Shown here: positions 3,013-64,000 of the stretch, piece by piece
Numbering within the stretch: the first letter of the stretch is position 1
Layout: every line of letters starts with the position of its first letter
Assembly (NCBI GenBank): GCA_964626055.1
Contig: CAZVDF010000005.1
Span: 6,057-70,056, forward strand
DNA length: 64,000 nt
Reading direction: 5' to 3'
Source: an uncultured Leptospirales bacterium
Lineage (GTDB): Bacteria; Spirochaetota; UBA4802; JAFGDQ01
The notes under the pieces: generated by a model
Seen by the model: only the letters and a program-made list of their open reading frames with translations
The model's database searches: none
What the model was told of the DNA's origin: nothing
Made by a program: the position numbers and the translations under genes

Positions 3013-3789
3013 ATGAAGGATGGATTGATTCATAAAACCGCTATTATCGAAGGTAATGTTTCCATTGGGAGTAATGTTAAGGTCGGTCCTTATGCGTATT
3101 TGTCCGGGGACATCAGGATAGGAGATGACACAGAGATCGGACATTGCGTCCAGATAGAAGGCGATGTTAAAATCGGGAATGGCAATAAAATAGGCCATAG
3201 CGCCCATATCGGAGCTCCGCCGCAGGATGTAGCGTATAACGGGAGGAAGTCGTTTGTCATTATAGGCAATAACAATATTATCCGGGAGTTCGTGCAGATC
3301 CACAGGGGAACAAAAGAAGGCACTTCTACCGAGCTCGGCAGCGATTGCTTTTTGATGGGCGGAGTGCATCTTGCGCACAATACAAAAGTCGGCAACAATG
3401 TTATTATTGCAAACAATACATTGCTTGGGGGATATGTCGAGATAGGCGATTTCGCTTTTGTATCCGGATTATGCGGATTTCATCAGTTCGTGAGGGTTGG
3501 CAGGTATGCTATGATAGGCGGCCTTGCAAGGATAAGCAAGGATTGTCTTCCTTTCATGATCACCGAAGGAAGCCCTGCAAGGACTATCGGGCCTAATGTT
3601 GTCGGCTTAAGAAGACGGGAATTTACCCTCGAAAGACGGCAATCCATTAAAGAGGCGTACAGGATATTATTCAGATCCAGGCTCAATGTTTCTCAGGCAG
3701 TAGAAGAATTAAATAAAATTAAAAATAACATAGACATTGAAGAAATGATCGGGTTTATAAAATCCTCCGAACGGGGTATTATAAAGTAA
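3013..3789 (+). CDS. lpxA: Acyl-ACP--UDP-N-acetylglucosamine O-acyltransferase
   Basis: 258 aa with an N-terminal hexapeptide beta-helix and a C-terminal helical domain, the length and architecture typical of LpxA. Confidence 0.85.
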   Translation: MKDGLIHKTAIIEGNVSIGSNVKVGPYAYLSGDIRIGDDTEIGHCVQIEGDVKIGNGNKIGHSAHIGAPPQDVAYNGRKSFVIIGNNNIIREFVQIHRGTKEGTSTELGSDCFLMGGVHLAHNTKVGNNVIIANNTLLGGYVEIGDFAFVSGLCGFHQFVRVGRYAMIGGLARISKDCLPFMITEGSPARTIGPNVVGLRRREFTLERRQSIKEAYRILFRSRLNVSQAVEELNKIKNNIDIEEMIGFIKSSERGIIK

Positions 3790-13740: not shown

Positions 13741-13767
13741 AGAGTATTTCTGTGGATAGTTTTTACC

Positions 13768-13824
13768 ATGATCTGGCTGGATAATATCTACTTCGACTCC
13801 ATAGATATTATCCAGCCAGATCAT
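13768..13824. terminator. Perfect 23-bp stem / 11-nt loop hairpin between convergent genes
   Basis: atgatctggctggataatatcta ... tagatattatccagccagatcat are exact reverse complements. The hairpin sits between the + hydrolase stop (13740) and the - oxidoreductase stop (13864). No U-tract follows. Confidence 0.45.
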
Positions 13825-13863
13825 CAGCAAAAATTTCCAGCATTTACTGTAATAGGTTTTTAA

Positions 13864-18354: not shown

Positions 18355-18480
18355 GATAAACCGAAATACATTACAAAATTTATTGCGGAATGCCTTCCAG
18401 GTCAGTTTTTTATTTTTCCGAAAGCTGTTGCAACAGGTCTGAAAGACGTCCTCATAAATTATGTAATATATTTCGGTTTA
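18355..18480. repeat. Palindromic MITE-like element, copy A (~125 bp), with imperfect terminal inverted repeats
   Basis: Termini aaaccgaaatacattacaaaattt / aaattatgtaatatatttcggttt. About 80% identical to copy B at 20360-20490. Confidence 0.55.
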
Positions 18481-18582: not shown

Positions 18583-20244
18583 ATGCAAAAAAATAAAATT
18601 ATAATTTTGATCATATCATTTTTAATCATTTCCGCAAAGAACGATATTACAAATATCGTAAAAATGCCTTCGGCCGAATATCCTTCAGCCAATATAGAGA
18701 AACAGAACGCGATTGTTACATCCGATCCTGCAGGCAAAGAAGTATTTACAGTTAAAGATTTATCATACAGGGGAGAGAGCGATCCTTTGATCACAGATGT
18801 CTTATTATCATTCAATACTCCTTCTCCCTATCTTAAAAAAGACGATACCGGAAAATATATTATTCAGCAGGCACTTTATAAATTCATAAAAGAGAACGGC
18901 GTTCTCGGCGGGGGAGGGGCGGGATTTTCGCAAAGGGATCATAAAGTCGAAATCGAACCATCCAGGAATTTATGGCTCGGAAGCGCCGGCGATCTCGGAT
19001 CTTTTACGCTTGAATTCAGATTATTGCCGGTCGCTTTTAATAATGAAAGCGTTTTATTTTCCAGGGTGGGTTATTTTTCCGGCAGGAAGAACGGCATAGA
19101 AGTTAAAATAAAAGATAAAAGAATAATAGTAAATCTTTACCGAATATTTAAAGACTCCAGAGGAATAAGGTATGATGTCAGTCTTATTAAAGGCAGAGAC
19201 CTTGAGCTTAAAAAATGGCATCATTTCATATTCAGTTTCGACCGTATTTCAGGCAAGCTCGCGAAATACCTGAACGGACATGAAGAAGATGCAATATTTG
19301 TCACCGAAACGGACAGGCCTTTTGAAGATGTGTATGAACCGTCTTTTGAATCTGTAGATATGCCTGCCGCGGTAATAGGAAAAAAGTACTACGGTTATCT
19401 TGATGAATTCAGGATAACATATCGGCATATTGAAGATTTGAAGAAGGAAACGGATATTGCGTATAAAAATTATAAAAAACTCGGGACTCTCGGCAGGCAG
19501 CCCGTGAATCAGGTCGGGATTGTGACCAGCCCGGTATATGCTTTCGCTTCAACAGGGACATCCGTTTCGTTATTAAAATGGAATGAGCTGTTAAAAGAGA
19601 ATACATATATCTGGATGGAATTCAGAATAAGCGATAATCTGTTCGATAAAAATGACAAAGCGCTTAAGTGGTACCGGATAACGAACAGTCAGAAAAATAT
19701 TTATTTGATGAAAGAAGCGGGTGAATACCTGAGAGGCAAATATTACCAGTGGAAAGCTTATCTTGTCCCGTCGCCTGAGGGGAAAAATTCGCCTTATCTT
19801 TACGATGTCGAACTGACCTATCGGCTCGATCCTCCTCCGGCGGTTCCTCAATTTGTCTCATCAGCAAATGCGGGCGATAAGATCGTTCGAATCAAATGGA
19901 ATAAGAATGTAGAACACGATATTCTGGGCTACAGAATTTATTACGGCGTTATGCCGAATAAATATGAAGGCATCATAGGATATATAAACGGGAAAAGGAT
20001 AACGAATGAATTCAATAGCGGCAGAAAATATATTGAATTGGAATTGACCAATGACATAATTGAAGAAAATAAGCAGAAAGACCCGGCAGGCGTACTGGAG
20101 TACCCGTTTTTGGAAAACACTGTCCTTTACTTTTTTGCTGTCAGTGCATACGATTCGTACAGACCGGACACCCCCTATAATCATGAATCTTCATTATCGG
20201 AAGCTGTTAAAGCCCGCCCCTTCGCAGGGTCTGAAATAAAATAG
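18583..20244 (+). CDS. Hypothetical secreted protein, possibly a lectin/LamG-like domain plus an FN3-like C-terminal domain
   Basis: Signal peptide. The C-terminal segment PPPAVPQFVSSANAGDKIVRIKWNKNVEHDILGYRIYYG has an FN3-like pattern. The gene is bracketed by MITE-like copies A and B. Confidence 0.45.
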   Translation: MQKNKIIILIISFLIISAKNDITNIVKMPSAEYPSANIEKQNAIVTSDPAGKEVFTVKDLSYRGESDPLITDVLLSFNTPSPYLKKDDTGKYIIQQALYKFIKENGVLGGGGAGFSQRDHKVEIEPSRNLWLGSAGDLGSFTLEFRLLPVAFNNESVLFSRVGYFSGRKNGIEVKIKDKRIIVNLYRIFKDSRGIRYDVSLIKGRDLELKKWHHFIFSFDRISGKLAKYLNGHEEDAIFVTETDRPFEDVYEPSFESVDMPAAVIGKKYYGYLDEFRITYRHIEDLKKETDIAYKNYKKLGTLGRQPVNQVGIVTSPVYAFASTGTSVSLLKWNELLKENTYIWMEFRISDNLFDKNDKALKWYRITNSQKNIYLMKEAGEYLRGKYYQWKAYLVPSPEGKNSPYLYDVELTYRLDPPPAVPQFVSSANAGDKIVRIKWNKNVEHDILGYRIYYGVMPNKYEGIIGYINGKRITNEFNSGRKYIELELTNDIIEENKQKDPAGVLEYPFLENTVLYFFAVSAYDSYRPDTPYNHESSLSEAVKARPFAGSEIK

Positions 20245-20359
20245 CCGGGAATAATCTCAAAAATACTTTACTATAAATCCCGCAATAAGATAATATTGAA
20301 TTAATATATCTTATAATCAGAAGTCATCTCAGAATTATATTTTCACATAAATGATTAAT

Positions 20360-20490
20360 GATAAGTTGGAATACATTACAAAATTTTCTGCGGAATCAGA
20401 CCTTCCGGGTCAATCTTTTATGCTTTTGAACGCTATTGCATCAGGTCTGAAAGGCGTCCTCAAAAATTTTGTAATGTATTCCAACTTATC
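20360..20490. repeat. Palindromic MITE-like element, copy B (131 bp), with perfect 28-bp terminal inverted repeats
   Basis: gataagttggaatacattacaaaatttt (20360-20387) is the exact reverse complement of 20463-20490. The 64-aa ORF 20351-20545 inside it is very likely spurious. Confidence 0.6.
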
Positions 20491-20545
20491 AACAGATAGA
20501 TTACTATTTATAAACGACTTCTATTATTATTTTATCAATATTTAA

Positions 20546-31002: not shown

Positions 31003-31092
31003 GGAGATAATGATAGTATCCCTAATTTCCTGCGGAACTCGGCCTTTGGCCTCAGACAGTCCTCGGAAATTTGGGATACTATCATTATCTCC
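31003..31092. other. Perfect 20-bp inverted-repeat stem enclosing a conserved 42-nt core, copy 1 (candidate structured RNA or REP-like element)
   Basis: ggagataatgatagtatccc (31003-31022) is the exact reverse complement of 31073-31092. The core ttcctgcggaactcggcct-ttg-gcctcagacagtcctcggaa (31027-31068) recurs at 60041-60082. Confidence 0.5.
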
Positions 31093-50945: not shown

Positions 50946-52388
50946 ATGTTTAAAAACCTGAAAAAATTTATCACAGAACTCGAGTTACAGGGTGAGCTTC
51001 GAAGGATTAAAACGGAAACCGATCCGTACCTTGAAATTACGGAAATTACCGACCGCGTGAGTAAAGCGAACGGGCCCGCGCTTTTATTCGAGAAAGTAAA
51101 AGGGGCCGCCTTCCCGCTCCTTATAAACGCTTTCGGAAGTTATAAACGAATGCAGATCGCGTTGAATTGCGGTTCATTTGATGAAATCGCTAAAAAAATA
51201 GAGTCTTACATGAAAATAGAGCCGCCTTCAGGACTCGGCAATAAAATTAAAATGCTTTTCACTTTAAAGGAAGTGGCGGATTATATCCCGAAGACTGTTA
51301 GGCATGCTCCGTGCCAGGAAAACACATTGAACGCGGAGACATCCCTGCTTGATTTGCTTCCCATTATTACCTGCTGGCCGGGAGACGGAGGCCCTTTCAT
51401 TACGTTACCTGTAGTGATCACGAAAGATCCCGATAACGGGATACAGAATGCCGGTATGTACCGGATGCATAAATACGATCGGGCAACGACCGGAATGCAC
51501 TGGCAGTACAACAAGGACGGAGCAAATCATTTTTCCAAATATAAAAACGCGGGTAAGCGCATGGAAGTCGCTGTTGCCCTCGGCGGACCGCCTGCAGTAA
51601 CGTATTCCGCGACCGCGCCTCTTCCGCCGAATATAGACGAGTTTATGTTCGCGGGTTTTATTAATGGCAGGGCAGTGGAGCTTGTCAAGGCAAGGACAGT
51701 CGATCTTCTTGTGCCTGCAGAATCGGATTTTATTATCGAAGGTTATGTCGATACTGAAGAATCGCGCATTGAAGGCCCGTTCGGCGACCATACCGGTTTT
51801 TATTCGGCGAGCGATACATATCCTGTATTTCATGTTAACTGTATTACCTATAGAAACGATGCAATATATCCTGCCACTATCGTGGGCAAGCCCCCGATGG
51901 AGGATTGCTACATGGCAAAGGCGACTGAGCGTATATTTCTTCCAATGATTAAAATGATCGTTCCCGAACTTGTCGATATGGAGCTTCCGATCGAGGGAGT
52001 GTTCCATAACTGCGCGCTTATTTCGATCGATAAAAAATTTCCGGGACAGGCCAAGAAAGTGATAAATGCATTATGGGGGCTTGGACAGATGTCTTCGACC
52101 AAATTCATAGCCGTGTTTGATAAAGACATCGATCTTCGCGATCCGTCTGCTGTCGTGTGGAAACTTTTGAACAATGTTGATCCGAAGAGGGACCTGATAT
52201 TTTCGGAAGGGCCGCTTGACGCTCTGGATCATTCCGCGCCTTACCCGAATTTCGGCGGCAAAATGGGAATAGACGCAACCCGCAAGACGAGAGAAGAGGG
52301 AATGGGCAGGGAATGGCCGGATGAAATTAAAATGTCAGATGATATAATTCAAAAAGTCAGCAAAAGATGGAAGGATTATGGATTTTAA
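50946..52388 (+). CDS. UbiD-family decarboxylase (menaquinone/futalosine-pathway decarboxylase-like)
   Basis: 480 aa with the UbiD fold pattern (GGPFITLPVVITKDPDNGIQNAGMYRM) and C-terminal prFMN-binding region. It lies next to a UbiA homolog and mqn genes. Confidence 0.8.
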   Translation: MFKNLKKFITELELQGELRRIKTETDPYLEITEITDRVSKANGPALLFEKVKGAAFPLLINAFGSYKRMQIALNCGSFDEIAKKIESYMKIEPPSGLGNKIKMLFTLKEVADYIPKTVRHAPCQENTLNAETSLLDLLPIITCWPGDGGPFITLPVVITKDPDNGIQNAGMYRMHKYDRATTGMHWQYNKDGANHFSKYKNAGKRMEVAVALGGPPAVTYSATAPLPPNIDEFMFAGFINGRAVELVKARTVDLLVPAESDFIIEGYVDTEESRIEGPFGDHTGFYSASDTYPVFHVNCITYRNDAIYPATIVGKPPMEDCYMAKATERIFLPMIKMIVPELVDMELPIEGVFHNCALISIDKKFPGQAKKVINALWGLGQMSSTKFIAVFDKDIDLRDPSAVVWKLLNNVDPKRDLIFSEGPLDALDHSAPYPNFGGKMGIDATRKTREEGMGREWPDEIKMSDDIIQKVSKRWKDYGF

Positions 52389-53220
52389 AACATTCGGCAG
52401 GCTGATCCTGATTGAGCAGACCCTTTTTGCTTTGCCTTTTGCTTATCTTGGAATACTATTTGCCGGAAAGGCTTCAATCGGGATATGGGTATGGGTGACT
52501 CTGGCTTTGGCCGCAGCCAGAACCGCCGGCATGTCTTTTAACCGTGTTATTGATGTCGATTTTGACTCAAAAAATCCAAGAACAAAAGACAGGCTGCTGC
52601 CTCAGGGAAAAGTATCGAAAAAATCAGTATGGCTCATAGCAGCTTTTTCCTGTCTGGTTTTGATAGGCTCTTCATTCATGCTGAATATGCTGTGCTTTTA
52701 TCTTTCTTTTATCGCTGTAATCCTGTTGTTTACATATTCCTATTTCAAACGGTTTTCATCGTCTTCGCATTTTTATCTTGGATTTGTGGAGGCAGCCGCG
52801 CCTGTCGGAGGTTATCTCGCAGTAACCGGCGCGTTCGATGTGTTGCCTTTTGTACTCGGTATAGTTATCATGACCTGGATAGCGGGGCTTGATATTGTTT
52901 ATGCCATTCAGGATGTCGACTTCGACAGAGTTGAAAAGCTCCATTCTTTGCCCCTGGCTATCGGCAGGAACAGGGCGCTTTTTATTTCAGCATGCTGTTA
53001 TATTGTTGCCGTTATCGGGCTTGTATATGCCGGTATATCGGCCGGAAGAAATATTCCATACTGGATCGCGGTAATTTGCACGACTTTAATATTTATTTAT
53101 CAGCAGAAGCTCGCTCGTAGCAGCGATATAGCAAATGCGGTAAGGAAGTTTTTTAAAGTAAATACATTTATTTCTCCTGTTCTGTTAATAGGTACTTTTA
53201 TAGATGTGTATTTTATGTGA
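52378..53220 (+). CDS. UbiA-family prenyltransferase (menaquinone-specific, futalosine-pathway type)
   Basis: Eight to nine TM helices. Asp-rich motifs NRVIDVDFD and DIVYAIQDVDFD. It overlaps the UbiD-like gene by 11 nt. Confidence 0.8.
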   Translation: MDFKTFGRLILIEQTLFALPFAYLGILFAGKASIGIWVWVTLALAAARTAGMSFNRVIDVDFDSKNPRTKDRLLPQGKVSKKSVWLIAAFSCLVLIGSSFMLNMLCFYLSFIAVILLFTYSYFKRFSSSSHFYLGFVEAAAPVGGYLAVTGAFDVLPFVLGIVIMTWIAGLDIVYAIQDVDFDRVEKLHSLPLAIGRNRALFISACCYIVAVIGLVYAGISAGRNIPYWIAVICTTLIFIYQQKLARSSDIANAVRKFFKVNTFISPVLLIGTFIDVYFM

Positions 53221-53285: not shown

Positions 53286-53426
53286 CCCCCTAACCCCCAG
53301 AGGGGGCACCGGCTTGGAAGGATTTAGCCAACGTGTCTTTATATTGTATACGGTTAATAAACAAAGCGGGAATTAAATTTAATTATTTTTTTGATAGTTA
53401 TTGTGCCCCCTCCGGGGGTTAGGGGG
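53286..53426. repeat. GC-rich inverted-repeat element 1 (24-bp IR arms, ~93-bp AT-rich interior)
   Basis: ccccctaacccccagagggggcac (53286-53309) versus gtgccccctccgggggttaggggg (53403-53426) has one mismatch as a reverse complement. Confidence 0.5.
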
Positions 53427-53564
53427 AACATGGAAGGCATATTTTAATAATCAACATTGCTTACTTAATGTTTAAATAAATGTGGGTAGATGTCAGTTTA
53501 AAGGGGAAAGTGGTGAGGGCATTTGTCTCCAAAATTTTTTAAAAGATGGAAAAGTTAAAAAATC

Positions 53565-54653
53565 ATGAATCTTCCAGATAAAATAAAAGATACAAAGCTT
53601 CGCGCTATCGCTGAAAAGGTGCAAGCAAAAATTCCGGTCGATGAAGCCGACACCCGTTTTATGCTTACAACAAACGATATTCTGGATCTGGGCGCAATTG
53701 CTAACTTTGTCAGGATGGAGCGCTACGGTAAAAGTACGTATTACAGCGTTAACATGAATCTCAATTATAGCAATATCTGCGAGCTGAGATGTCCGCTATG
53801 CGCTTATTCATGCGATAAAGGCGATAAGAATGCATTTCTTCTGTCTCTCGATGATATAGGGCAGCGTGTACAAAAGGCTGTTAATGCCGGAATTGACGAA
53901 GTTCATATAGTCGGAGGACTTAATCCGGAACTTAAACTCGATTATTTTGAGTCAATGCTCAGAAGGATAAAAAAGGTAAAGAAGGATATTGTTATTGTAG
54001 CTTTCACAGCAGTTGAATACGACTACTTTGCAAAACTTAACAATCTTTCACTTGAGGATGTTTTTAAAAGACTGATAGATGCAGGCCTTGATGCTATACC
54101 CGGAGGTGGAGCTGAAATATTCTCTTCAAATGTGAGGAACATCATTTCTCCTAAAAAGATTTCCGGCGACAGATGGCTTGAAGTAATGAGGACGGCTCAT
54201 GATTTCGGATTAAAGACCAATGCGACAATGCTGTATAACCAGCTTGAAGAAACTGACGATATTATAGATCATCTGTTCAGGATACGCGCGCTTCAGGAGG
54301 AGACAAGCGGATTTAAAACATTTGTGCCCCTCCTTTTCCACGGCGAAAATACGCAGATAAGATCAAAGCGCTCAACTTCAACGGGATACGACGACATCAG
54401 AATTTATGCGACAGCAAGAATTGTGCTACATAATGTTCCGCATATCAAGGCTTTGTGGATGTATCTCGGCGAGAAAATGGCGCAGCTATTGCTTAACTTC
54501 GGAGTTGACGAGCTCGGCGGGACATACGAAAACGAGAAGGTCGTTCATGCTGCCGGAGCAGGGACTCCGGATTATGGTACGGAGAGTTTTCTTGTACGCT
54601 TGATTAAAGAAGCGGGACTTAAGCCTGTCAGGTCGACGGCGCTGTATAGATAG
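53565..54653 (+). CDS. Radical SAM menaquinone biosynthesis enzyme, MqnC/MqnE family
   Basis: CELRCPLCAY (CxxxCxxC), the TIM-barrel radical SAM pattern, and a C-terminal region typical of futalosine-pathway MqnC/MqnE. The paralog cannot be resolved by eye. Confidence 0.75.
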   Translation: MNLPDKIKDTKLRAIAEKVQAKIPVDEADTRFMLTTNDILDLGAIANFVRMERYGKSTYYSVNMNLNYSNICELRCPLCAYSCDKGDKNAFLLSLDDIGQRVQKAVNAGIDEVHIVGGLNPELKLDYFESMLRRIKKVKKDIVIVAFTAVEYDYFAKLNNLSLEDVFKRLIDAGLDAIPGGGAEIFSSNVRNIISPKKISGDRWLEVMRTAHDFGLKTNATMLYNQLEETDDIIDHLFRIRALQEETSGFKTFVPLLFHGENTQIRSKRSTSTGYDDIRIYATARIVLHNVPHIKALWMYLGEKMAQLLLNFGVDELGGTYENEKVVHAAGAGTPDYGTESFLVRLIKEAGLKPVRSTALYR

Positions 54654-54731
54654 TCTCTGTTTGGTAGCTTTCCTTTCTAAGGGGCTGAGCCGTAACTTAC
54701 TAAAAGAATATATTACTGGTTTTCTGCTTTC

Positions 54732-54915
54732 GGCCCCCTAAATCCCCTTAAAGGGGGACTTAAAAGATTAGTTTTGGTATATAATGGAAAATTGTTTTAG
54801 TATATCAGATTGGATTTATTTTAGTCACTTATCTCGAAATGTGAATGGTATTATCGACTCAAATTTGAGGTCAGGTTGCAAATAAAAGTCCCCCTTTAGG
54901 GGGATTTAGGGGGCC
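54732..54915. repeat. GC-rich inverted-repeat element 2 (30-bp IR arms, ~125-bp AT-rich interior)
   Basis: ggccccctaaatccccttaaagggggactt (54732-54761) versus aagtccccctttagggggatttagggggcc (54886-54915) has one mismatch as a reverse complement. It shares the ccccctaa / ttaggggg motif with element 1. Confidence 0.5.
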
Positions 54916-57610: not shown

Positions 57611-57683
57611 TCTTTTCATATTTTCGAGAGTTATCGAATCAGTTCCGGAAGTCGTTCTTAAAAATTTTATAATGTATTTTAAT

Positions 57684-59093
57684 CTATAAATTATATTTTC
57701 TTCTTATATATCTTCCATAGTTTTTCGCATCTCTCCATTGCGGGCGCGTGCCCATGCGATTGACCAATGCCTGTATGATTCTCATGGACATCCGTCTCCA
57801 GTCTGCAGGAGTTGACCATTCCGGACGTCGGCGGGCTACGGAATCCAGCACAGCAAGAGGATTTTTTCCGAGAGCCGGGGAAACATAATAGCGCGGCAGA
57901 AAAAGGTCTGCGTTGCCGGGTATCATTTTTTCTCTGATAGCGATTTTTTCGATCTCAGTATCCGGGTAGATGCGAAGTCCGAGCGATGCGAATACTGCAT
58001 TAGGTGTCTTACATGAGTCCAGAAATCGCTGTACTTCATCTATGTCGCCGGCATTCTCTTCGGGCCCTCCGAAAAGCATTTGTACGACAGCCGGCAGCTT
58101 CGCATTATGTACTGCATTTAAAGATTTGCGGATGTCAGCCTGATCGAATGGTTTTTTCATTACATTAAGCATTTTATCCGTGGCAGCGTCGACGCTCATC
58201 TCTATTCCTATACATCCGGATGCTTTCATAGCTTTCGCCAGCTCATCATCAAATCCTGCCGGATTGCAGTAAGCCATCCATGACACGGAAGAGCCCCGGC
58301 GGATCAGCTCACGGCAGATTTCAAGAGCGTGCTCGGGCGAACTGTTGAAGACATTATCTGTTATGAAAACATAACAGCCTTTGTTATTACTTGAAACATA
58401 TTCGAACTCATCTGCGATAAGGCCGGGATCGCGCAGACGCAGCCTGTGTCCTTCGAGATTCGGATAATTGCAGTAAATGCACTTGAACGGGCATCCGCGC
58501 TTGGTTTGAATGCCTATAAATCCTCCATGTGAAAGATATTTCGTGTATCTGCATAAATGGTGAGCGGGCCGGTGAAGATCATTGACTTCCGGTCGGTCGG
58601 CGGGCGATCCGTAATTACTACGGTAATTAGCCGGTGTTATGATCCCGGCTATGCCGTTCGCCCGTCTGTTTTCTGATATACATTTGAGCAATGAAACAAA
58701 GGCTTTTTCGCCTTCTCCGATCACGCCATAGTCAGGCTTCAAGCGCTCCATCCATCCGGCCGGGGAAATGGAAAAACCGCTTCCGCCGAGTATAAGAGGC
58801 GCATTGGTTAAACGTCGTATATCATCAAAGATTTCTTTTACTCCGTCTAAATATAATTCCTGGAACGCCCATGAACAGCTGTCGAGATTCCGGATTCCTA
58901 TGCCGATTGCAATATAATCACAGGATTTCAGAGCTTTTTTCAGTGCTCTTGCCGGAGACCGGACAAAGGACATATCGATAATATCCGCTTCGTAGCCTGC
59001 CTTTTCAGCAGCCGCAGCCACATATAGCACTCCGAGAGGAGCAACCGGGAAAGGCGACCTGTTCCTGTTCGATGCAACAAGCAGAATCCTCAC
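57684..59093 (-). CDS. B12-binding-domain radical SAM protein
   Basis: N-terminal cobalamin-binding Rossmann region (MRILLVASNRNRSPFPVAPLGVLYVAAAAEKAGYEADIID) and radical SAM CPFKCIYCNYP. Confidence 0.8.
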   Translation of the reverse strand: MRILLVASNRNRSPFPVAPLGVLYVAAAAEKAGYEADIIDMSFVRSPARALKKALKSCDYIAIGIGIRNLDSCSWAFQELYLDGVKEIFDDIRRLTNAPLILGGSGFSISPAGWMERLKPDYGVIGEGEKAFVSLLKCISENRRANGIAGIITPANYRSNYGSPADRPEVNDLHRPAHHLCRYTKYLSHGGFIGIQTKRGCPFKCIYCNYPNLEGHRLRLRDPGLIADEFEYVSSNNKGCYVFITDNVFNSSPEHALEICRELIRRGSSVSWMAYCNPAGFDDELAKAMKASGCIGIEMSVDAATDKMLNVMKKPFDQADIRKSLNAVHNAKLPAVVQMLFGGPEENAGDIDEVQRFLDSCKTPNAVFASLGLRIYPDTEIEKIAIREKMIPGNADLFLPRYYVSPALGKNPLAVLDSVARRRPEWSTPADWRRMSMRIIQALVNRMGTRPQWRDAKNYGRYIRRKYNL

Positions 59094-63742: not shown

Positions 63743-64000
63743 AAGCCATTTTAAAATTTTTTTTTGCTGATCAATCGGGATATATCATAAAATTTTTGAG
63801 GAGCCTTTCAGACCTGATGGAAATGCGCTCGAAAACATCAAAGACTGGCCAGGAAGATCTGATTCCGCAGAAAATTTTTGATATATCCCGATTGATCGAT
63901 AAACATTAAAATGTATCAAAAATTTGGAGATGGCTTTTAGTAACCATTTAAAAGGTTTTTAGCTACATTCTTAATTTTTAATTTCAAAGATAATATCAGA

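Follow-up and report, generated by a model that had tools for sequence, protein, structure and literature searches.

Two paired palindromic elements, named E1 and E2 here, occupy successive intergenic spacers of a row of menaquinone (mqn, futalosine pathway) genes in DNA of an uncultured Leptospirales bacterium (contig CAZVDF010000005.1, positions 6,057 to 70,056); the whole stretch of 64,000 nucleotides that was analyzed is referred to as the window. E1 and E2 are best explained as passenger palindromic repeats of a widespread family, which would be spread at the DNA level by a hairpin-recognizing enzyme and may have effects on mRNA, and this reading was given a probability of about 0.7. They are not a futalosine-specific device.

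Structure of the elements

E1 and E2 are real long inverted repeats with GC-rich arms. A repeat finder returned arms of 24 nt for E1 (96% complementary) and of 30 nt for E2 (97% complementary), with one mismatch each, and the coordinates, arm lengths, single mismatches, AT-rich cores and shared motif given for both elements in the earlier note on this DNA were thereby confirmed, as they were by the sequence (Table 1). All four arms can be aligned with one another, the motif shared by the two elements being CCCCCTAA(C/AT)CCCC...GGGG(G/AT)TTAGGGGG. Every arm is composite: an outer CCCCCTAA(C/AT)CCCC(C) is followed by a 3-5-nt loop and a run of five G, so that the second C-run, the loop and the G-run form a small hairpin within the arm (C5-AGA-G5 and C5-TCC-G5 in E1, C4-TTAAA-G5 and C5-TTTA-G5 in E2). 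The interiors have a GC content of 27-28%, against approximately 41% for the window, and those of E1 and E2 are not similar (interior alignment z = -1.9). Folding of the single strands, a check proposed in the earlier note, gave very stable structures in comparison with shuffled sequences, at -68 kcal/mol for E1 (z = -5.95) and -83.5 kcal/mol for E2 (z = -8.06).

From the shared ends, a paired pattern was defined as CCCCCTAANNCCC-N(101-161)-GGGNNTTAGGGGG, with 22 specified bases and a gap of 101-161 nt. In the window only E1 and E2 matched it, and none of 100 dinucleotide shuffles did. Runs of at least five C or G number 33 in the window, and eleven of them fall within the 325 bp of E1 and E2.

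Table 1. Coordinates of E1, E2, the surrounding mqn genes (positions in the window) and the module-flanked cyanobacterial DUF559 open reading frames (positions in the respective locus)
Feature	Position	Strand	Description
E1, complete	53286-53426	none	141 bp; TAAC-type arms, 93-nt core, 27% GC
E1, left arm module	53286-53309	+	CCCCCTAACCCCCAGAGGGGGCAC; outer C5-TAA-C5 motif, then inner C5-AGA-G5 hairpin at 53294-53306
E1, right arm module	53403-53426	-	Reverse complement CCCCCTAACCCCCGGAGGGGGCAC; inner hairpin 53406-53418
E1, interior	53310-53402	none	AT-rich; unlike E2 or any other copy compared
E2, complete	54732-54915	none	184 bp with GG/CC extension; TAAAT-type arms, 124-nt core, 28% GC
E2, left arm module	54732-54761	+	GGCCCCCTAAATCCCCTTAAAGGGGGACTT; inner hairpin 54744-54757; arm type as in L204 and L221 (Spirochaetota metagenome-assembled genome)
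E2, right arm module	54886-54915	-	Reverse complement GGCCCCCTAAATCCCCCTAAAGGGGGACTT; inner hairpin 54890-54903
E2, interior	54762-54885	none	AT-rich; no significant similarity to other copies
UbiD-family menaquinone decarboxylase	50946-52388	co-directional row	TIGR03701, 635 bits
UbiA/MqnP-like prenyltransferase	52378-53220	co-directional row	
Radical-SAM gene, CofH/MqnE/MqnC family	53565-54653	+	Flanked gene, between E1 and E2
MqnA/D-like open reading frame, 267 aa	54953-55756	co-directional row	Counterpart in relatives carries PF02621 (MqnA/D family)
DUF559 open reading frame, L206	6527-6913		Module-flanked, cyanobacterial
DUF559 open reading frame, L226	2471-2875	-	Module-flanked, cyanobacterial
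DUF559 open reading frame, L135	4893-5276		Module-flanked, cyanobacterial
DUF559 open reading frame, L164	1451-1850	-	Module-flanked, cyanobacterial
DUF559 open reading frame, L146	4461-4811		Module-flanked, cyanobacterial

Dispersal of the arm motif across phyla

The family defined by the arm motif is dispersed across many bacterial phyla. The paired pattern was scanned over a collection with one genome per species and taxa were counted from the record titles; loci that were compared carry L-numbers and proteins P-numbers, and the element counts below refer to the matches listed, of which 127 elements (L124-L243) were compared. At least 120 matches to the strict pattern were found, where base frequencies lead to an estimate of about 2 by chance (up to about 20 if all genomes had 70% GC). 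The matches listed comprised approximately 45 from Cyanobacteria, 58 from Bacteroidota, 6 from Armatimonadota and 3 from Spirochaetota, with single ones from Nitrospirota, Desantisbacteria, Hydrogenedentota, Gemmataceae, Anaerolineales, Thermoanaerobaculia and a ‘delta proteobacterium’; several loci can occur in one genome (e.g. 6 in an Alloprevotella metagenome-assembled genome, MAG). The motif is thus not confined to the two sites in the window; its uniqueness to them was among the findings that the earlier note had named as refuting its interpretation. Two Spirochaetota MAGs are among the genomes matched.

Identity across phyla is limited to the outer 13-15 nt, the subterminal arm and the core being lineage-specific. 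Both arm types of the window are common: the 127 elements included 56 TAAC/TAAC, 21 TAAAT/TAAAT and 42 mixed pairs, the last mainly cyanobacterial. Modules are found alone, paired in inverted orientation or clustered in tandem; 123 adjacent +/- pairs lie within 200 nt of each other in the compared loci, a count biased by the selection of loci for such pairs. Cyanobacterial copies are nested, arranged in tandem and adjoin heptamer repeats. Searches of the searchable literature for the motif, for DUF559 together with repeats, and for transposable elements of the miniature inverted-repeat type (MITEs) in these phyla returned no description.

Two viral contigs matched the strict paired pattern. 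The loose single-module pattern was saturated on viral contigs, and many of its hits share (A/T)G-CCCCCTAACCCCC-(A/G)AA-GGGGGAA; contigs with this longer consensus have several intergenic copies each, and one has inverted pairs of the E1 architecture. A subset of the single-module matches lies within a coding sequence of a Klebsiella phage and was taken to be unrelated lambdoid replication-origin iterons. The look-alike, GATCCCCCTAAATCCCCCAAGGGGGAAAACTC, is found inside a coding sequence of Klebsiella phage RCIP0114 (L122 2501-2546) and on approximately 20 IMG/VR prophage contigs. Look-alikes of this kind are a source of false positives for single-module searches.

Copies in Spirochaetota and turnover of arms and cores

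Two Spirochaetota MAGs, one of them from a likely relative, carry E1-type or E2-type arms at unrelated loci. In the MAG that holds the closest named homologue (80% identity) of the radical-SAM protein encoded between E1 and E2, another contig contains an element with perfect 25-nt arms (L160 1666-2009; CCCCCTAACCCCCAGGGATGCCTCA), and a complete E1-type element is nested in its core at 1761-1945, with arms ending in GGGGGCAC. The second MAG has two copies with E2-type arms (L204 and L221; GGCCCCCTAAATCCCC-loop-GGGGGACTT), the cores of which are homologous to each other (z = 9.3) and not to E2. These three copies lie in one co-directional, one divergent and one convergent spacer, next to unrelated genes.

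Copies in the same genome can share cores; by eye, interiors appear common to copies within an Alloprevotella MAG and also to two Flavobacterium-group genomes. At an orthologous Paludibacter site (L145 3866-3998 and L157 at about 3480-3620) the core and the right arm are homologous and the left arm differs, a TAAAT type in one corresponding to a TGAC type, with TGA in place of TAA, in the other. Replacement of the left arm with retention of core and right arm indicates that modules turn over independently of the core.

Tests of element class

Both E1 and E2 carry terminal inverted repeats on a non-coding element of less than approximately 300 bp, as MITEs do. Classical MITEs would be internally deleted insertion sequences (IS) that a DDE transposase from another locus moves by cutting and pasting at their ends. 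The size of 141-184 bp, the AT-rich non-coding core, the intergenic site, the dispersal and the cores common to copies of one genome all fit this explanation. The target-site duplications that the earlier note had suggested looking for, however, were found neither at E1 (flanks gga/aac) nor at E2 (flanks ttc/ttt), nor across the 127 elements (k = 2-8). The sole excess of flanking repeats, GAT/ATC, is an artefact that arises because a GATC palindrome adjoins the cyanobacterial modules. In many copies the inverted repeat continues for 5-21 nt past the C5/G5 motif; what is conserved is accordingly part of the stem and need not mark the terminus. Module pairs lying 250-3500 bp apart in the compared loci enclose ordinary or housekeeping genes, never a transposase-like open reading frame (ORF). 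Further, one 13-nt motif recurring in about ten phyla, on arms that are otherwise unrelated, does not resemble IS terminal repeats. Of the MITE proposal in the earlier note the dispersed, MITE-like character stood and the classical signature did not, and a classical MITE origin is considered distinctly improbable.

Canonical repetitive extragenic palindromes (REPs) and their inverted doublets (REPINs), mobilized by a REP-associated tyrosine transposase (RAYT; TnpA-REP, HuH-Y1), are a second candidate. The window units of about 24-30 nt are extragenic and present four times in 64 kb, to be compared with the REP definition of a 20-40 nt palindrome repeated extragenically, and E1 and E2 are each an inverted doublet that can form one hairpin. 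Also in agreement with REPs, the hairpin units occur singly, as inverted doublets or in tandem clusters, lie within operons and close to 3' ends and make no target-site duplication, and the distribution seen here resembles that reported for RAYT subclass 2.4 / group 4, which is frequent in Cyanobacteria and Bacteroidetes and sporadic in many phyla (PMC6006769, PMC5581495). Against this, the 5' GT[AG]G foot, the defining feature of canonical REPs (PMC6006769), is absent from the window modules, which are preceded by GGA, GTT, CGG and AGG, and a GTAG foot is found in only a few Flavobacteriia copies, by chance. The doublets are widely spaced, with 93-124 nt of unconserved core. Among the REPs listed for subclasses 2.2-2.6 in the supplementary data of PMC6006769 there is no C5-TAA-C5 unit, and a regular-expression search for HuH together with Y1 motifs was negative for the ORFs of the window and of approximately 2 Mb of compared loci. 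A canonical REP origin is accordingly held to be unlikely. As a REP- or MITE-like repeat that lacks one defining feature of each family, the pair is classed with neither.

Recombination sites bounding a mobile cassette, attC-like or dif-module-like, would make the radical-SAM gene exchangeable. Inverted palindromic sites do bracket the gene, and the ends of E1 (...CCTAAC / GTTAGG...) resemble attC core sites. The consensus of these sites is RYYYAAC...GTTRRRY. E1 nearly matches it (cCCTAAC/GTTAGGg), whereas E2 has CCCTAAAT/ATTTAGGG, with ATTTAGG and without the GTT core. No integron integrase was present among the ORFs at 47-59 kb, the part of the window covered, all of which are metabolic. The gene and the order UbiA-rSAM-mqnA are conserved in relatives without modules, the neighbours belong to core metabolism, and the genes bracketed elsewhere are ordinary operon members. 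The attachment or recombination sites once proposed for this locus are therefore scarcely credible.

Ordinary intrinsic terminators, possibly bidirectional and long by happenstance, would account for GC-rich stems downstream of genes, and a terminator-like site does lie within E2, although on the minus strand. On the gene strand neither element is followed by a T-tract (E1, GGGGGAACATGG; E2, GGGGGCCTTTAATAC), loops of 93-124 nt are far outside terminator geometry, and the motif shared across many genomes would be left unexplained. The local-terminator alternative of the earlier note is very improbable on these grounds.

The mqn locus and its relatives

E1 and E2 fill two successive spacers of the mqn row, in the order UbiD, UbiA, E1, radical-SAM, E2, MqnA/D-like. 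They start 65 (E1) and 78 (E2) nt after the preceding stops and end 138 and 37 nt before the next starts, which agrees with the distances to the radical-SAM gene noted previously (E1 approximately 138 nt upstream of the ATG at 53565, E2 78-80 nt downstream of the stop at 54653). An ORF near the elements matches a Leptospira family, which together with the 80% homologue of the radical-SAM protein makes a member of the Spirochaetota the probable source of the DNA.

No modules were found at the mqn locus (L121) of the Spirochaetota MAG with the 80% homologue. In relatives with 83-85% radical-SAM identity the order UbiA-rSAM-mqnA is retained and the spacers measure 98/119, 192/200 and 201/352 bp by gene coordinates; a relative with 76% identity (L244) has spacers of 234/307 bp that are occupied by other repeats. 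In the window the two spacers measure 344/299 bp, or 203/115 bp when E1 and E2 are subtracted, where relatives span 98-234 / 119-352 bp. The closest relative with comparable DNA is syntenic and has other repeats in these mqn spacers. Such differences in spacer length and content among relatives agree with inserts having been gained and lost independently. In a control set of 773 kb surrounding 80 orthologous mqnE genes from metagenomes, one loose module only was found; together with the other repeats in the syntenic relative, this speaks against the tie to the futalosine genes that had been suggested for the elements.

The other repeats in the two mqn spacers of relatives (L244 8740-8930, L244 7425-7519 and L121 11160-11230) were of three types, namely a tandem array of approximately 20-nt units (atcggcacccatgagaggct-like), an inverted repeat with 19-nt arms and a different C-run/G-run hairpin. 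Beside the mqn genes of the window, the ORF at 57684-59093 (-) matched TIGR04072 (B12-binding radical-SAM ‘lipid biosynthesis’) with 330.8 bits, below the cutoff of 360. This family is associated with ladderane-producing anammox bacteria.

A scan for terminator-like sites gave none on the plus strand at E1 or E2, the single site within E2 being on the minus strand, and a scan for promoter-like sites gave no excess at the elements. Co-transcription of the elements with the mqn operon is therefore plausible, and E1 and E2 are probably part of its transcript.

Placement relative to genes and persistence in Flavobacteriia

Among the 105 classifiable elements, 73 lie in co-directional, 23 in convergent and 9 in divergent spacers, against a background in the same loci of 70%, 16% and 14%, respectively. 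Of 124 flanking stop codons, 37 are placed -8 to +9 nt from the end of the element: nine flanking genes stop at the TAA inside the element's own CCCCCTAA, and in a further 28 the stop precedes the element by 0-9 nt. Bracketing of a gene by two elements or modules is common; examples are thiolase (fad operons), E3 (2-oxoacid dehydrogenase operon), ilvN, gltD-like genes, leu genes and ctaE. As flanking on both sides is common, and a second, unrelated palindromic family of the window behaves likewise (see below), bracketing of the radical-SAM gene is expected whenever neighbouring spacers are occupied, and it is not evidence for a gene-specific device.

In six Flavobacteriia species (L155, L161, L173, L197, L217 and L225) an element is present in both spacers of a fadB-thiolase-acyl-CoA dehydrogenase operon, the flanking fad genes being 71-86% identical in nucleotide sequence. 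A distance of 0-2 nt separates the stop codon from the start of the 5' arm, and the end of the 3' arm is about 4-7 nt from the ATG that follows; the arms and a second hairpin (CCCTACTTACCCCTAGTAGG) are conserved and the cores are variable. Five further species pairs have elements at orthologous sites. This pattern looks like selection, or continual renewal, of a hairpin bridging stop to start. Placement there is tight, whereas E1 and E2 are positioned much more loosely.

The Flavobacteriia operons bear on the explanation of E1 and E2 as selected intercistronic RNA hairpins, in which a stem in the transcript would control processing or stability of the mqn mRNA or couple translation. Consistent with it are the very stable predicted stems, the position between co-directional genes, the six fad operons with stop-to-start elements in both spacers and cores free to vary, and the stop codons at element ends, nine of which use the element TAA. 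Here, however, the spacing to stops and starts is loose, the closest relative with comparable DNA has no such elements in these spacers, the spacers of the 83-85% relatives are shorter, and the Spirochaetota copies occur in divergent and convergent spacers as well. Mismatches in the arms comprised 39 sense-strand G.U and 42 A.C, i.e. no excess of G.U, which gives no sign of maintenance of the stem at the RNA level and argues for a repeat at the DNA level. At a permissive E-value Rfam returned no meaningful match (the best was a plant miRNA model, 18.5 bits against a gathering score of 117). The stem would form if transcribed, but copies flank unrelated genes elsewhere, and the specific role in insulating or regulating the radical-SAM gene put forward in the earlier note is unsupported; a selected RNA function of E1 and E2 is regarded as rather unlikely.

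Association with DUF559 endonuclease genes

In five cyanobacterial loci an ORF of approximately 125 aa for a DUF559/Vsr-like endonuclease (PF04480) has modules on both sides (Table 1), and a DUF559 cassette of about 550 bp is common to otherwise unrelated cyanobacterial loci. ORFs with modules at both ends are rare, numbering only 4 of 247 in 45 cyanobacterial loci. Approximately 100 of the best 120 homologues (P0121-P0240) have the C-termini IPPNPP, IPPSPP, IPPTPLKKGG or IPP; these tails translate gATCCCCCCTAACCCCCCttaa, i.e. the gene runs into the module.

In Bacteroidota, a DUF559 domain lies in frame within a larger ORF of Flavisolibacter (L142 4875-6173(-)), flanked by module-encoded junction peptides, and in the proteins P0273, P0280 and P0335 the DUF559 domains either lie in frame within a larger ORF or appear joined to MetH-like sequence. 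Junction peptides read from GC-run modules (PPPGDLGG, PPLGVRG and PLGEDLGG) occur in at least L142, P0273 and P0335. Judged from these reading frames, the domains are intein-like insertions. No module was found within 400 nt of 24 DUF559 homologues on viral contigs, and among 120 homologues of the Flavisolibacter domain only about 5 end in a module-like tail; on this account the idea of DUF559 as a partner of the modules in general was dropped. The link between DUF559 and the modules is solid for the cyanobacterial subfamily only, where the cassette may be the autonomous partner of the repeats.

More broadly, the C5-TAA-C5 modules could constitute one undescribed, cross-phylum REP-like superfamily with a small DUF559 (Vsr-like, PD-(D/E)XK) cassette, in place of a RAYT or DDE transposase, as autonomous partner, with the hairpins domesticated in some lineages such as Flavobacteriia as stop-to-start bridges coupling neighbouring cistrons and with E1 and E2 as ORF-less derivatives. 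This is put forward as a tentative and doubtful extension.

Weighing of the passenger-repeat explanation

Under the explanation of E1 and E2 as passenger repeats, they are two non-coding copies, of two arm sub-types, of the family. Each element consists of two inverted end modules of approximately 25-30 nt (C5-TAA(C/AT)-C4-5, a short loop, G5) that enclose an AT-rich core specific to lineage or copy. An enzyme recognizing the hairpin-forming modules would spread or renew the elements at the DNA level without target-site duplication; candidates are hairpin- or single-strand-directed nucleases, either of the RAYT type or, as the cyanobacterial evidence suggests, a DUF559 Vsr-like endonuclease. 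Elements would accumulate in intergenic spacers, operon spacers included, and two neighbouring mqn spacers would have been occupied by happenstance. If transcribed with the operon, the very stable hairpins could affect processing or stability of the mRNA.

Several observations weigh against this explanation. E1 and E2 are only two copies, with four modules, in 64 kb, and their cores match none of the other copies compared, so that copying of these two as whole units is not supported. A clean empty site could not be reconstructed for either, because the spacers of the nearest relatives with DNA (76% and 80% identity) do not align. No mobilizing gene was found: besides the missing HuH-Y1 ORFs given above, the window contains no DUF559 ORF. 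No such motif appears in the supplements of two REP surveys. Finally, persistence at orthologous intercistronic sites in Flavobacteriia is explained by a selected function no less well than by selfish spread.

Comparison with known repeats and significance

The closest analogues are the REP/BIME/REPIN repeats of E. coli and Pseudomonas, which likewise are short, GC-rich hairpin units occurring singly, as inverted doublets or in clusters, are extragenic, within operons or at stop codons, lack target-site duplications and have in-frame occurrences inside ORFs (PMC6006769). The window unit differs in a stem of only 4-5 G:C pairs, an extra C5-TAA before it and the absence of the GT[AG]G foot, and in doublets whose arms are 93-124 nt apart around an unconserved AT-rich core. 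In addition, the 13-nt motif of the C5-TAA family crosses phyla, whereas REPs are described as species-specific, and no RAYT was found in the compared loci. Bacterial MITEs (Correia/NEMIS, ERIC, RUP and Nezha; for a list of MITEs see PMC3733652) are also non-coding elements of 130-185 bp with terminal inverted repeats and AT-rich cores; they are intergenic, likely co-transcribed, and form within-genome families with conserved cores. The C5-TAA family, in contrast, has no target-site duplication or parent IS, its inverted repeat often exceeds the motif, and its arms are exchanged independently of the core.

Integron attC sites (57-141 bp) are likewise imperfect palindromes on either side of a single gene, conserved at the ends and variable in the centre. 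They differ in that E2 departs from the core consensus, that no integrase is present among the ORFs at 47-59 kb, that the genes concerned are housekeeping genes and that operon spacers are filled in many genomes. Small dispersed repeats, which Elhai et al. reportedly described in 2008 in Nostoc and other cyanobacteria (cited in PMC3733652), are said to be hairpin units of 21-27 nt that are nested and occur in tandem repeats and minitransposons. The cyanobacterial C5-TAA copies, being nested, in tandem and next to heptamer repeats, resemble that account, a likeness of description and not of sequence. The small dispersed repeats are reported for cyanobacteria only, whereas the C5-TAA motif spans about ten phyla.

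At the mqn locus the finding is ordinary, and the result mainly guards against over-reading: the paired hairpins are neither a switch of the futalosine pathway nor a cassette boundary. The family is more interesting than the locus, because of a stem motif that crosses phyla, its departure from both the REP and the MITE definition, the cyanobacterial DUF559 link and the intercistronic placement in Flavobacteriia. If one enzyme family or host process explains the motif, it would be a new class among the few mechanisms known to disperse short palindromes in bacterial genomes. Given the conserved placement from stop to start in Flavobacteriia operons, a role in translational coupling or mRNA processing would be directly testable. 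As generic repeat DNA, the modules also inflate spurious ORF calls (peptides such as PLNPP and GDLGG).

Other palindromic elements and spurious peptides

The window is generally rich in palindromic intergenic elements. A second palindromic family, unrelated to E1 and E2, is represented at 18357-18480 and 20359-20491, with arms containing ...GAATACATTACAAAATTT...; these two copies are homologous over their whole length (approximately 125-135 bp) and bracket the ORF at 18583-20244 in a co-directional row. The same family is seen at 57662-57677 of the window and as an inverted arm pair in the 76% relative (L244 4122-4230). Further long inverted repeats, of other sequence types, lie at 63769-63897 (34-nt arms), 31003-31092 (28-nt arms) and 13753-13839 (38-nt arms). 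ORFs extended at their starts gain spurious peptides from the modules, such as PLRGLGG, PPNPLKGE and GDLGG.

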